Below, piece by piece: positions 913 to 64,000 of a stretch of DNA of 64,000 nt. The DNA comes from a virus (lineage: Duplodnaviria > Heunggongvirae > Uroviricota > Caudoviricetes). A program made the position numbers and the translations under genes. The DNA lies in IMG/VR virus record IMGVR_UViG_2706795421_000001, positions 22,247 through 86,246 of that record. One strand, written 5' to 3'. The notes beneath the pieces were generated by a model, which saw only the letters and a program-made list of their open reading frames with translations, was not told the DNA's origin and did not search any database. Within the stretch, counting starts at the first letter, position 1, and each line of letters starts with the position of its first letter.

Positions 913-939
913 TCGGTTCCTCCTTTGGATTGAGAGTTC

Positions 940-968
940 ACTATACCACTGCTTGGGAAAGAAGTCAA
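940..968 (-). promoter_or_regulatory. sigma70-like promoter for the minus-strand operon (TTGACT-N17-TATAGT)
   Basis: Reverse complement reads ttgact-17nt-tatagt, about 25 nt upstream of the RBS of the 912 gene. Confidence 0.5.
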
Positions 969-971
969 CCC

Positions 972-1000
972 TTGACAAACTAAAAAATTTATAGTAATAT
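972..1000 (+). promoter_or_regulatory. sigma70-like promoter (TTGACA-N17-TAATAT) in AT-rich island, divergent from the minus promoter
   Basis: ttgaca at 972-977, 17-nt spacer, taatat at 995-1000. Local GC is about 25%. Confidence 0.4.
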
Positions 1001-1025
1001 TATTAAATATATTATATATAATATA

Positions 1026-1059
1026 CAAGGGAGGGAGTGGGCAAGTGCCCCCTCCCTTG
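1026..1059. other. nested GC-rich hairpin (outer stem AAGGGAGGG/CCCTCCCTT, inner GGGCA-AG-TGCCC); second copy at 63084..63115
   Basis: Perfect inverted repeats. No U-tract follows, so it is unlikely to be a simple terminator. Confidence 0.6.
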
Positions 1060-1102
1060 TACTAAGTATATAATTAATATTAATTACTATAGGTTAATTT
1101 TT

Positions 1103-1279
1103 ATGAGATGTAAAGGATGTAATAGGATAATTAAATATCCTAGTAAGAATTCAGTTTCAGGAAAGCATGAGGACCTATGCTCCCTGTGTCAAGGCCGTGC
1201 CAGGATGGTAGGCCCTCCTGAGGACTATGCATTCCCTCACGTCAAGCAGGGGTTGACACCAGTACGCAAGTGTGACTAG
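1103..1279 (+). CDS. small Cys-rich protein (CxxC...CxxC), questionable
   Basis: ATG at 1103 (MRCKGCNR...SLCQGR...). No clear SD. Lies in the AT-rich island. Confidence 0.25.
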   Translation: MRCKGCNRIIKYPSKNSVSGKHEDLCSLCQGRARMVGPPEDYAFPHVKQGLTPVRKCD

Positions 1280-54507: not shown

Positions 54508-54983
54508 ACAAGGCTCTCCTTCTGAAAGACCAGTTGGCAGCAGCCCTACGATGTGAAGACCATACCCTGCAAGGTGTTGTCAGTTCTATCGTGTTCGGCC
54601 CTGCCCAGGGGCTTGATCATAACGGTATTGCGATCCGTGGGCCGGGGCTTCTAAGTGATCACCGGGAACTGGTACAGCGAGCCGACAGGGTATGGATGAA
54701 CATCGCCTACCGTCGAGCAGGTTTGCTAGTCAACATGAACGGCTTTACCCGGTCTGTGGTAGATGTGTTTATTCTCAAAGACAGGTATCACGGGCTGACA
54801 GGGTTGAGGTCCGTGGGTGTGGGGGAGGGATGGGCAAATGCCCTGGCCATCGACTGTGCCCTGCTGAAGAAGCAGTTCGAAGTTATTGTCGAAATCCCTT
54901 ACCAGTACGAGGGGTGGGCAACCGACCTGGTACGGGCAGGTGAGATTCCTGAAGGTGTGACCATCATGTCCTCGGGGGTGTAG
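54504..54983 (+). CDS. hypothetical protein (159 aa)
   Basis: ATGA overlap with the upstream stop. Confidence 0.45.
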   Translation: MNKALLLKDQLAAALRCEDHTLQGVVSSIVFGPAQGLDHNGIAIRGPGLLSDHRELVQRADRVWMNIAYRRAGLLVNMNGFTRSVVDVFILKDRYHGLTGLRSVGVGEGWANALAIDCALLKKQFEVIVEIPYQYEGWATDLVRAGEIPEGVTIMSSGV

Positions 54984-55051
54984 ATATTTGAGGGGCTGGG
55001 GATATTTGCTCTAGATATTTGGGTGGCCCCCTATTTCGAGCTAGATATTTG
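54981..55051. repeat. iteron-like array A: three copies of TAGATATTTG(R)GGG at about 30-31 bp spacing, plus a fourth GATATTTG
   Basis: Copies at 54981, 55012 and 55042, with GATATTTG at 55001. Noncoding. Confidence 0.55.
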
Positions 55052-55154
55052 AAGGGGCCTCCCAGCCTCGCTATCACATTTTTAAGCCGGCCCCTGACTC
55101 ACGGCCTAGGTTAGGGGAAAAATCGTCTCCTAGGCCCCTCAGAGGAGCTTACAA

Positions 55155-61890: not shown

Positions 61891-62061
61891 AATGAAACGT
61901 CAATATACTGATTCCTACTATTGCAAAGCAATCACCGGCATGATCTCTGTCCTCGGCAGCAAGAAAGTTACCACTCAAGCGCCGCCGTCGATGAAAGCCT
62001 CTCGAAATAAACTGCTGAAAAAGATGATAAAATACGTCGCACGGGCAGGATGGAAACCGTA
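61891..62061 (+). CDS. small basic protein (56 aa)
   Basis: GGAG RBS. MKRQYTDSYYCKAITG... Confidence 0.4.
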
Positions 62062-62454: not shown

Positions 62455-62673
62455 TGAAAATTCAGATTGGCCAGCATACCCTGGAAATTACAGCCCCGAT
62501 CCGCAACAACCACCTAGCTACAGAGTATTGCAGTGTGTCCTTGAACGGGAAACGTATCTACGGAGGTTTCAACCCTTTTGAAGCCTGGGGACTGTTCGAA
62601 GCCCTGGAGAAAGCCCTACTCACTGTCGAAGCTCAGGCAGCGCCCCTAGAGGAAAGCTTGCATGACTGGTGAT
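62455..62673 (+). CDS. hypothetical protein (72 aa)
   Basis: CAGGAGG sits 6 nt before the ATG at 62455. Confidence 0.45.
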
Positions 62674-62880: not shown

Positions 62881-64000
62881 ACTCCTATTCGGTGTGACTA
62901 GGTTTCTATTCGGTCGCCATAATAATGACCCTGGGGAGGGTCCTACGGACCGTCACGATAACAGGGGAATTATGGCCATGTTAACAGGGCCTAGAGGCTT
63001 CTACGAAGCCAGTTTAGCCTAGGCAGTACCCTAGGATGGGAATGGCCTTGAAAAGGCCGTATGCGCGCCCCCAGGGGGCCTATCGGGGAGGGAGTGGGCA
63101 AGTGCCCCCTCCCCGTGTCTAAGCCTTACCAACTGGACTCTACGAGTCTATTTCAACAGGCTTCTACGAAGCCATATGATCACCAGGCATAACACCAATC
63201 ATGCGCAGAGCATCCGGGTAGGATGTTCAAGCCATTGGTCCCTCCTCTCTGTCAAGAATTCTGTAACATTCACTAGGTCACGTCGTGACCCATTGTGTAA
63301 CAGTCAGCAGACTGTCATTCGGGCAGGGGCATTTGCCCCCTTCCTGCCCTCCTAAACTGACTGGCTTCGTCGAAGCCTTCCCATGCCACCAGCCCGATTA
63401 TGTAACAGCCTGGCCATGACCATGGCCCATTGTGTAACGGCATTGCATGCCAGGATCACCAGACAGCCTCAGCCAGGGCAATTGTGTAACCATTCCCCAT
63501 CCCAGCAGCAGAATATCCCCAGCCAGGAAGCCCATGACCACCCCCATTGCATCTCAGGTGATCAGCCCCTGGAATACGGCCATTGTGTAACGGAACACAG
63601 GGACACCAATGCCTACCCATGCCCTAGTAGGCTTCTTCGAAGCGAGCTAATGCCGGCGTCTCTCTACCCTAACGGGAAGAGTTCCCCCTTTATTATGGCG
63701 ACCGAATAGAGAATGCCCGGTTCATGCGGCCTGTAGGCCATTACAATGGCCAGCCATGGGAAGGATTGCATTACACAATAGGCTTGCCCTCACCCATGAA
63801 TTGACAGGCCTCTACGAGGCTAGCCAGGCTCAGCTAGTGAGCTTGAGTTACACAATTCATCCTCACATATTGCCCCACTCCCCATGCCACACCCCTGACA
63901 TTCAACCCCATGCCCCAGCTTCAGCAGATACATTTGCTTCGACGAAGCCTGGATATTTCCAGATCATGACGGCGCCTCATGGCCACCCTAGGGTCTTGTT
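62881..64000. repeat. 1.1-kb noncoding region dense in short repeats and palindromes (candidate ori/pac/regulatory hub)
   Basis: No ORF with an RBS. CATTGTGTAAC occurs 4 times forward (63291, 63428, 63480, 63581) and twice reversed (63769, 63848). Six or more GGCTTCnnnGAAGCC palindromes. 14-16 bp palindromes GGTCACGtCGTGACC, GGCCATGacCATGGCC and GGCCATTacAATGGCC. A 20-bp inverted repeat CTATTCGGTCGCCATAATAA (62911) pairs with TTATTATGGCGACCGAATAG (63683). Confidence 0.6.
63084..63115. other. second copy of the nested hairpin (CGGGGAGGG-AGT-GGGCA-AG-TGCCC-C-CCTCCCCG)
   Basis: The 28-nt core is identical to 1029..1056. Outer stem ends differ in a base-pair-preserving way. Confidence 0.6.

Follow-up and report, generated by a model that had tools for sequence, protein, structure and literature searches.

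What might a GC-rich hairpin be doing that stands, its core unchanged, at two distant places in one phage genome, one beside a strong promoter and the other on the approach to the genome end? The question is raised by a 64,000-nt stretch of DNA, here called the window, which megablast identifies as Pseudomonas phage vB_PaeM_PAO1_Ab03, genus Nankokuvirus (LN610573 / NC_026587), with a linear genome of 86,246 bp; the window is record positions 22247-86246, + strand. A preliminary description made from the letters of the window had noticed the pair of hairpins and offered as candidate roles an RNA processing site, a DNA signal and a transcriptional pause site. The layout of the genome and the features discussed below are collected in Table 1. 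The 771-bp terminal repeat of Ab03 had already been published (PMC4482731), and for phage PAK_P3 of the same genus the termini are T7-like direct terminal repeats according to PhageTerm (PMC13510664). The sequence of PAK_P3 is identical to that of Ab03 at the two hairpin sites, A and B; transcription start sites (TSS) and 3′ ends were taken from the ONT-cappable-seq tables for PAK_P3 in the supplement of bioRxiv 10.1101/2023.10.13.562163, published as PMC10914365.

Table 1. Layout of the Ab03 genome and features around the two hairpins. Positions are those of the window unless marked as record positions.
Feature	Position	Strand	Remarks
Ab03 genes	record 1-12 kb	+	
Ab03 genes	record 12-23.2 kb	-	
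AT-rich noncoding island	record 23.2-23.6 kb		
Ab03 genes	record 23.6-85.1 kb	+	all on this strand
Leftward sigma-70 promoter TTGACT-N17-TATAGT	933..968	-	= PAK_P3 P069; TSS 84247 = window 933
Sigma-70 promoter TTGACA-N17-TAATAT	972..1007	+	= PAK_P3 P070; TSS 84321 = window 1007
AT-rich island, block of 131 nt	985..1116		no Ab03-PAK_P3 difference; flanks ~9% divergent
Hairpin copy A, full stem	1024..1061	+	TACAAGGGAGGG / CCCTCCCTTGTA, 12-bp perfect outer stem
CTAAG tail of A	1062..1066	+	same offset from core as in B
CxxC...CxxC ORF, 58 aa (PAK_P3 gp160)	1103..1279	+	first gene of the transcript with hairpin A in its leader
Noncoding, repeat-dense DNA leading into right terminal repeat	~1.1 kb of Ab03		
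Small GC hairpin upstream of B	63044-63058	+	GGCCTTGAAAAGGCC
Small GC hairpin upstream of B	63067-63079	+	GCCCCCAGGGGGC
Hairpin copy B	63084..63115	+	CGGGGAGGGAGTGGGCAAGTGCCCCCTCCCCG, 9-bp outer stem
CTAAG tail of B	63119..63123	+	
Right copy of 771-bp direct terminal repeat	63230..64000 (record 85476-86246)		identical to record 1-771
Third hairpin	63321..63349	+	inside terminal repeat, hence also record 92-120

The duplicated hairpin

The 28-nt core, GGGAGGGAGTGGGCAAGTGCCCCCTCCC, lies at 1029-1056 (A) and 63086-63113 (B), both times on the + strand, and site A in the form first described, 1026-1059, reads CAAGGGAGGGAGTGGGCAAGTGCCCCCTCCCTTG. These two are the only occurrences in the window even with up to 3 mismatches, 100 shuffles yielded 0 matches, and the 22 kb of the Ab03 genome outside the window hold no third copy; the duplicated nested hairpin is real and non-random. 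Its fold consists of an outer stem, a bulge of 3-4 nt on the 5′ side (AGU(G) in copy A), an inner stem of 3-4 bp and an AAGU loop, with helix lengths of 12+3 bp at A and 9+3 bp at B, only A being extendable, via weak A-U pairs. The centres of the two nested palindromes do not coincide but are 2 bp apart. For the + strand the predicted RNA fold has -25.4 kcal/mol at A (z = -4.2) and -25.3 kcal/mol at B (z = -1.0), where z is low because the G+C-rich flanks of B fold well even when shuffled; the predicted values for the - strand are -27.2 kcal/mol for A and -29.4 kcal/mol for B.

Does the repeat end where the core ends? Both stems continue, by 5 bp at A (A-T, A-T, C-G, A-T, T-A outwards of the core) and by 2 bp at B (G-C, C-G); when the flanks are shuffled, extensions of at least 5 bp and of at least 2 bp arise with P = 0.009 and P = 0.059, respectively, and the joint probability is ~5e-4. 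Beyond the paired bases, CTAAG at +6..+10 and TA at -5..-4 are common to A and B, and when one indel is allowed the flanks align as TAT-(ACAA or CG)-core-(T or CG)-TGT(A)CTAAG, which makes the whole repeat a unit of ~45 nt: TAT, 2-4 nt, the 28-nt core, 1-2 nt and TGT(A)CTAAG. The pentamer CTAAG is under-represented in the Ab03 genome: base composition predicts ~79 per strand, and the + strand has 36, the - strand 22. That neither copy is followed by a U-tract, as had been said from the start, is confirmed by the tails, UUGUACUAAG at A and CGUGUCUAAG at B, and a scan with a terminator pattern called neither site. An Rfam covariance-model search gave no match at site B and at site A only MIR7994, a chance match whose 23 bits are far below the threshold of 100.

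A third, related hairpin had also been proposed. It is present inside the terminal repeat, but the relatedness does not stand: it resembles the core at 15/18 positions over the inner palindrome GGGCA..TGCCC only, carries its bulge on the opposite side, and in blastn-short shares with the core nothing longer than 8-mers, so that homology is not shown and its membership of a family with A and B was set aside as lacking statistical support. Within the coding sequence of ORF135, GGGAGGGATGGGCAAATGCCC at 54823-54843 resembles the 5′ arm plus inner hairpin at 21/23 positions with one gap; as a partial copy of the core it was rejected, the blastn-short E of 0.65-2.6 being compatible with chance. The sequence GGGGGCCTATCGGGGAGGGAGTGGG at 63074-63098, which overlaps the 5′ arm of B, is one of four four-tract G-quadruplex motifs on the + strand genome-wide. 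Copy A has three G-tracts only, and a G-quadruplex was discarded as the basis of the repeat, the four-tract motif being at B and absent at A.

The records inspected, those of Ab03, PAK_P3 and RP15, carry no annotation of the hairpin element, and no published description of it was found in the literature searchable; it is distinct from the 41-nt promoter repeats that Henry et al. reported. Some annotations that lie over the hairpins look spurious, namely gp112 (PAK_P30112, 62602-62817) and ‘putative promoter_15’ (84325-84358) of PAK_P3 NC_022970.1, and the ‘hypothetical protein’ across hairpin A in RP-series and LSL4 records, e.g., RP15 ON524861 22266-22508. The GenBank ‘putative promoter_15’ over hairpin A has no mapped TSS, the leftward TSS being 84247.

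Conservation and distribution

Over 54 nt, copy A shows no difference among 41/41 Nankokuvirus records, representing 34 distinct phages, and the core of copy B is identical in the 40/40 records that contain the site; what differs at B, a single base in Epa17's CTAAG tail and homopolymer-type indels in PAK_P5, falls outside the core. Thus the hairpin is present in every Nankokuvirus record holding the sites, and the preliminary description's worries, that relatives might not conserve it or that it might be a common host REP-like repeat, have both been dispelled. The core pattern with a free loop has 0 exact matches in 185,579 bacterial/archaeal species genomes, which rules out a host REP element, and in IMG/VR the same pattern matches only in KPP10. 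Among the 34 phages the flanks of both cores differ by 5-9%, with zero substitutions in the cores. The conservation is regional rather than hairpin-specific, each hairpin being part of a longer block without change, 131 nt at A and 85 nt at B, where the surrounding Ab03-PAK_P3 divergence is 6-9%, and another invariant run, of ~92 nt, lies near site B.

Such rigidity has a price. With no orthologous variation in the hairpin, covariation of the R-scape type cannot be tested, and what can be compared is two stem pairs (five at A), and these only between the two paralogues. The compensatory differences reported at the outset are there, the outer-stem pairs differing yet pairing as described; to call them a ‘signature of selection’ was an overstatement for a comparison of paralogues only, and template-switch correction of quasi-palindromes would give the same paired flanks without selection on RNA.

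Outside the genus the hairpin disappears. Phages vB_PseuGesM_254 and Boevelstad retain the AT island along with the promoter and the Zn-ribbon ORF, but have no hairpin in their plain, AT-rich leader, while Pakpunavirus Ab02 and Otagovirus phiPsa315 have no hairpin and instead a ~330-nt leader of ordinary composition; nor does Ab02 have a comparable hairpin before its terminal repeat. A search for wider orthologues via the DUF5681 protein in IMG/VR and JGI metagenomes returned unrelated contexts only. To judge from these genomes, the element is a Nankokuvirus-specific acquisition that was frozen afterwards. The ~330-nt leaders have a normal G+C content (Ab02 ~1020-1390, on the - strand of the locus numbered L017; phiPsa315 ~1000-1390 of L018) and share blocks such as GGAGAGATATGTCTG and ACGTCTTAGGCAGATT; they match no Rfam family, and may be an undescribed structured leader RNA.

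Site A: the promoter island

Hairpin A does lie, as had been stated, just 3′ of divergent promoters in an AT-rich island. It occupies +18..+55 of the 5′ UTR from P070 and is not transcribed from P069, which is back-to-back with P070; on each side it is flanked by ~60 nt of roughly 90% A+T, and low read coverage of the AT-rich region has been remarked on (PMC4482731). In the ONT-cappable-seq tables P070 starts the PAK_P3 transcription units TU114, which extends to 85458, and TU115, which extends to 86017; the longest read reaches 86928, and around 84.34-84.40 kb neither strand has an entry for a transcription termination site (TTS). The P070 TSS and the long transcripts together mean that hairpin A is transcribed and at least largely read through. 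No short leader RNA from P070 is reported by this method, from which a ~60-nt leader RNA would escape because reads under ~80 nt are lost. RNA-seq levels of gp160 in PAK_P3 are alike early and late, and the gp160-like ORF and its promoter are kept in the sister genera without the hairpin.

Several further features of the neighbourhood may be recorded. Pfam and PHROGs place ORF51, ORF52 and the gp160-like ORF in families of unknown function only. Between the Ab03 and PAK_P3 clades the ORF51 (375-911) protein is ~82% identical and that of ORF52 (1390-1746) 97.5%, and the 100% identity of the AT island between such unequal neighbours suggests a possible recombination joint. On the - strand a promoter-like TTTACA-N17-TATAGT at 1086-1114 faces A from the right, at a distance similar to that of P070; there is no TSS at the corresponding PAK_P3 position, and the match probably reflects chance, the DNA being AT-rich.

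Site B: the approach to the terminal repeat

Hairpin B follows the final ORF of the rightward early arm at a distance of ~205 nt, and another 115 nt separate it from the right terminal repeat; the repeat-dense noncoding region in which it had been placed is the approach to that repeat. With the two small GC hairpins upstream it forms a three-hairpin cluster. In PAK_P3, where it occupies 62625-62656, where do the transcripts stop? For reads of both P048 and P050 the most distant 3′ end, a value that is the extreme of single reads and not a peak, is 62661 (window 63120), the U of CUAAG with AAG beyond it, 5 nt after the last paired base of B and 7 nt after the GC core stem. The most distant 3′ ends of other TSS groups are 62440, 62684, 62729 and 62885, the last of these 5 nt past the inner stem of the third hairpin, and the next TSS is 63712; reads that pass B end 23-224 nt beyond 62661 and none extends further. 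The nearest TSS upstream, 61068, is 1.5 kb away, and the TTS calls that flank B are T031 at 61972 and T032 at 68654, B itself being uncalled by ONT-cappable-seq. Early RNA-seq counts in PAK_P3 fall from 30649 for gp110 to 2943 for gp111, 2769 for gp112, which contains B, and 0 for gp113, which begins 300 nt 3′ of B, coverage being already low before B, with two canonical terminators lying upstream. The terminal region of PAK_P3 has been called devoid of genes and transcription in the Hi-C study (PMC13510664).

This end of the genome is rich in other repeats. Within 62900-64000 there are six copies of the palindrome GGCTTCNNCGAAGCC, ATTGTGTAAC in five direct and two or three inverted copies, and a perfect 21-nt inverted repeat, 62905-62925 / 63690-63710, one arm of which is outside and the other inside the terminal repeat; these are candidate sites for packaging or replication proteins. 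Some 8 kb to the left of B, in an early region with a gene-free PAK_P3 Hi-C loop anchor, the noncoding 54984-55140 after ORF135 has three TAGATATTTG and one GGATATTTG interleaved with GC hairpins.

A proposed role at transcript ends and in leaders

Our tentative preference, held with somewhat less than even confidence, is that the element is a cis-acting RNA stem-loop that makes or protects transcript 3′ ends and maybe attenuates at A. The ~45-nt unit would act in cis on rightward (+) transcripts of the host RNA polymerase. As the last strong hairpin of its cluster, B would stop RNA polymerase or block 3′-exonucleases, early transcripts would thereby end a few nucleotides past the B stem, and transcription would be kept out of the terminal repeat and, after circularisation or concatemerisation, out of the next block of genes. 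A, in the same orientation in the P070 leader that opens the late/structural arm, might attenuate leakily, serve as a pause site or stabilise the leader, and would give a ~60-nt leader RNA plus a read-through mRNA. We infer both that the hairpin causes the 3′ ends at B and that it has any effect at A.

What speaks for such a role? That both copies are on the rightward-transcribed strand supports action on + transcripts, and the terminator-like reading of B is favoured by the mapping of a 3′ end within the shared single-stranded CTAAG tail, by the loss of RNA signal beyond B, by the extension of both stems beyond the shared core and by the 62885 end, whose geometry with respect to the third hairpin is as at B. 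The missing canonical U-tract is not disqualifying, as PAK_P3 has TTS that ARNold does not label: among the five PAK_P3 TTS rows listed, one is ‘intrinsic’ and T038, T039 and T040 have no label. PAK_P3 has 43 mapped TTS, and >70% of the 84 intrinsic terminators predicted by ARNold in six phages are those of phiKZ. Nevertheless, the lack of a U-tract does weaken the reading, the clear terminators of this phage carrying T-tracts, and it is weakened too by A and B being uncalled as TTS, by 3′-end evidence that consists of single longest reads, by the reads that pass B, by the lack of covariation among orthologues that do not vary, by the transcription through A to 86928, which makes A leaky at best, and by sister genera that do without a hairpin at the equivalent of locus A. 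The pausing or termination suggested from the sequence thus receives modest support at B from the public 3′-end data, and at A is countered by read-through.

Other readings

Might the hairpin instead be a signal in DNA? That the palindrome marks two landmarks of DNA metabolism, whether as cruciform, as single-strand hairpin or as binding site of a protein, is unlikely, though it deserves a hearing: A could lie in an AT-rich unwinding island that is a replication origin, and B could be a hairpin used in the duplication or cutting of the terminal repeat by analogy with what has been proposed for T7 concatemers. The 115 bp between B and the right terminal repeat fit this, as do the T7-like ends of PAK_P3, the further repeats crowding the terminal region and, for T7, a hairpin DNA intermediate with the terminal repeat, reported by Chung & Hinkle 1990 as cited in PMC4281155. 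For A there is the very AT-rich DNA between strong divergent promoters, together with PAK_P3 Hi-C coverage that is skewed from the record extremities to the centre and from which its authors infer theta replication from a single start (PMC13510664), site A being 3.7 kb from the PAK_P3 record end. The cumulative GC-skew minimum of Ab03, at 22-23 kb, points the same way at first sight; however, it coincides with the switch of coding strand, so that it is no independent evidence for an origin, and as such it was set aside as confounded. Against a DNA signal stand the 2-bp offset of the centres, which suits a bulged single-strand hairpin over a symmetric duplex site, the lack at B of AT-rich flanks that would aid extrusion, the example of Pakpunavirus, which shares the terminal-repeat architecture yet has no such hairpin, and the same orientation and conserved 3′ tail of the two copies, for which a DNA site has no need. 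An equation of A and B with Hi-C loop anchors was also considered and rejected, the anchors being ~14 kb apart vs 21.7 kb between B and A.

Slightly less probable still is that the palindrome has no function of its own, having been duplicated once, through ectopic recombination or gene conversion, in the ancestor of the Nankokuviruses and then kept inside blocks that are conserved for their promoters or their packaging or replication repeats, with its paired flanks coming from quasi-palindrome template switching. The existence of two copies only, the regional character of the conservation with an invariant run of comparable length near B, and an absence from vB_PseuGesM_254, Boevelstad, Pakpunavirus and Otagovirus that makes it a lineage-specific insertion are all compatible with this. 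Less easily accommodated are cores that have no substitution in 34 phages despite the divergence of their flanks, stems that are extended in both copies, a rare pentamer at the same offset in each, and RNA 3′ ends that coincide with B.

A site for RNA processing or recognition, be it of RNase III type, bound by an antitermination protein of nut/put type or protective against infection-induced decay, we consider improbable. Two identical structured RNAs on phage transcripts, with A directly 3′ of a promoter as nut and put are, would suit it, and PAK_P3 infection strongly alters RNA metabolism, its sRNAs arising by processing; but the helix, ~15 bp at A and ~12 bp at B, is short for RNase III, whose sites of the T7 R type comprise about two helical turns of dsRNA, frequently interrupted by an internal loop, which leaves the RNase III role of the preliminary description poorly supported, no Rfam family is matched, 1.5 kb separate B from the closest TSS upstream of it, there is neither a boxA-like element nor a second stem-loop, and no processed 5′ ends are reported.

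Both 5′ arms carry a Shine-Dalgarno-like GGAGG/GGAG, with the GUG of the loop 7-10 nt downstream opening an in-frame six-codon ORF, GUG CCC CCU CCC, then UUG UAC at A or CGU GUC at B, and UAA, the stop codon coming from the shared CTAAG (peptides M-P-P-P-L-Y and M-P-P-P-R-V, respectively). That the hairpin is on this account a translated sensor, in which a ribosome stalled on Pro-Pro-Pro, in a manner that would depend on EF-P and prolyl-tRNA, melts the stem and couples host translation to read-through at the early/middle and middle/late borders, is very improbable indeed, and by a rough estimate such features arise by chance in ~10% of hairpins with a G-rich and a C-rich arm.

Why the element matters

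Nankokuviruses (PAK_P3, KPP10 and the Ab and RP series) are candidate phages for therapy, and they run a three-stage programme with the host RNA polymerase only, from mostly sigma-70-like promoters. Judging by RNA-seq class labels and the Hi-C description, B, which is close to the termini, appears to lie where early and middle regions meet, and A at the middle/late border. An invariant cis element at both borders is a concrete and mutable handle on the separation of the stages, and also on the keeping of transcription out of the terminal repeat. More modestly, the spurious ORFs and the predicted promoter that some records place over the element can be corrected. Should it prove to be just a leaky terminator, this would be ordinary biology.

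Comparison with known systems

With host REP/BIME sequences the element has in common that it is a short, GC-rich, imperfect palindrome in noncoding DNA, and there the likeness ends, as it is phage-specific, has two copies and is absent from the representative genomes searched. T4-type PeSL cassettes combine an early promoter with stem-loop repeats at module boundaries. Element A is likewise a stem-loop with a sigma-70 promoter of early type, at the border of a highly mosaic region; unlike PeSL, there are two copies only, A is downstream of its promoter and B has none.

Lambda nutL/nutR and HK022 putL/putR are also two near-identical structured RNAs, one directly 3′ of a strong promoter. However, B is not promoter-proximal, and the element shares with them neither boxA nor a second stem-loop, nor any similarity of sequence or in Rfam.

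In T7, Chung, Nardone and Hinkle are said to have described in 1990 a hairpin at the concatemer junction that is an inverted repeat left of the terminal repeat. B is an inverted repeat similarly placed, 115 bp to the left of a terminal repeat in a genome with T7-like ends, but the element has a second, identical copy in a promoter island 23 kb from the genome end, and Ab03 is an unrelated myovirus that relies on host RNA polymerase.

A further comparison is with intrinsic terminators and leader attenuators. As with these, A and B are stable GC-rich stem-loops on the transcribed strand, and A is in a 5′ leader, a location where early termination is common in Pseudomonas phages, with 42 TTS in six of them. 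At B the longest reads from two TSSs end 5-7 nt after the stem, where 7-9 nt would be expected of an intrinsic terminator. Unlike intrinsic terminators, the tails UUGUACU and CGUGUCU have no U-tract, for which some 5 U or more among 8 nt would be needed, the stem has a bulge and is nested, there is no TTS call, and A is read through. Taking the likenesses and differences together, the element is best filed with the broad class of phage stem-loops that stand at transcript ends or in leaders.
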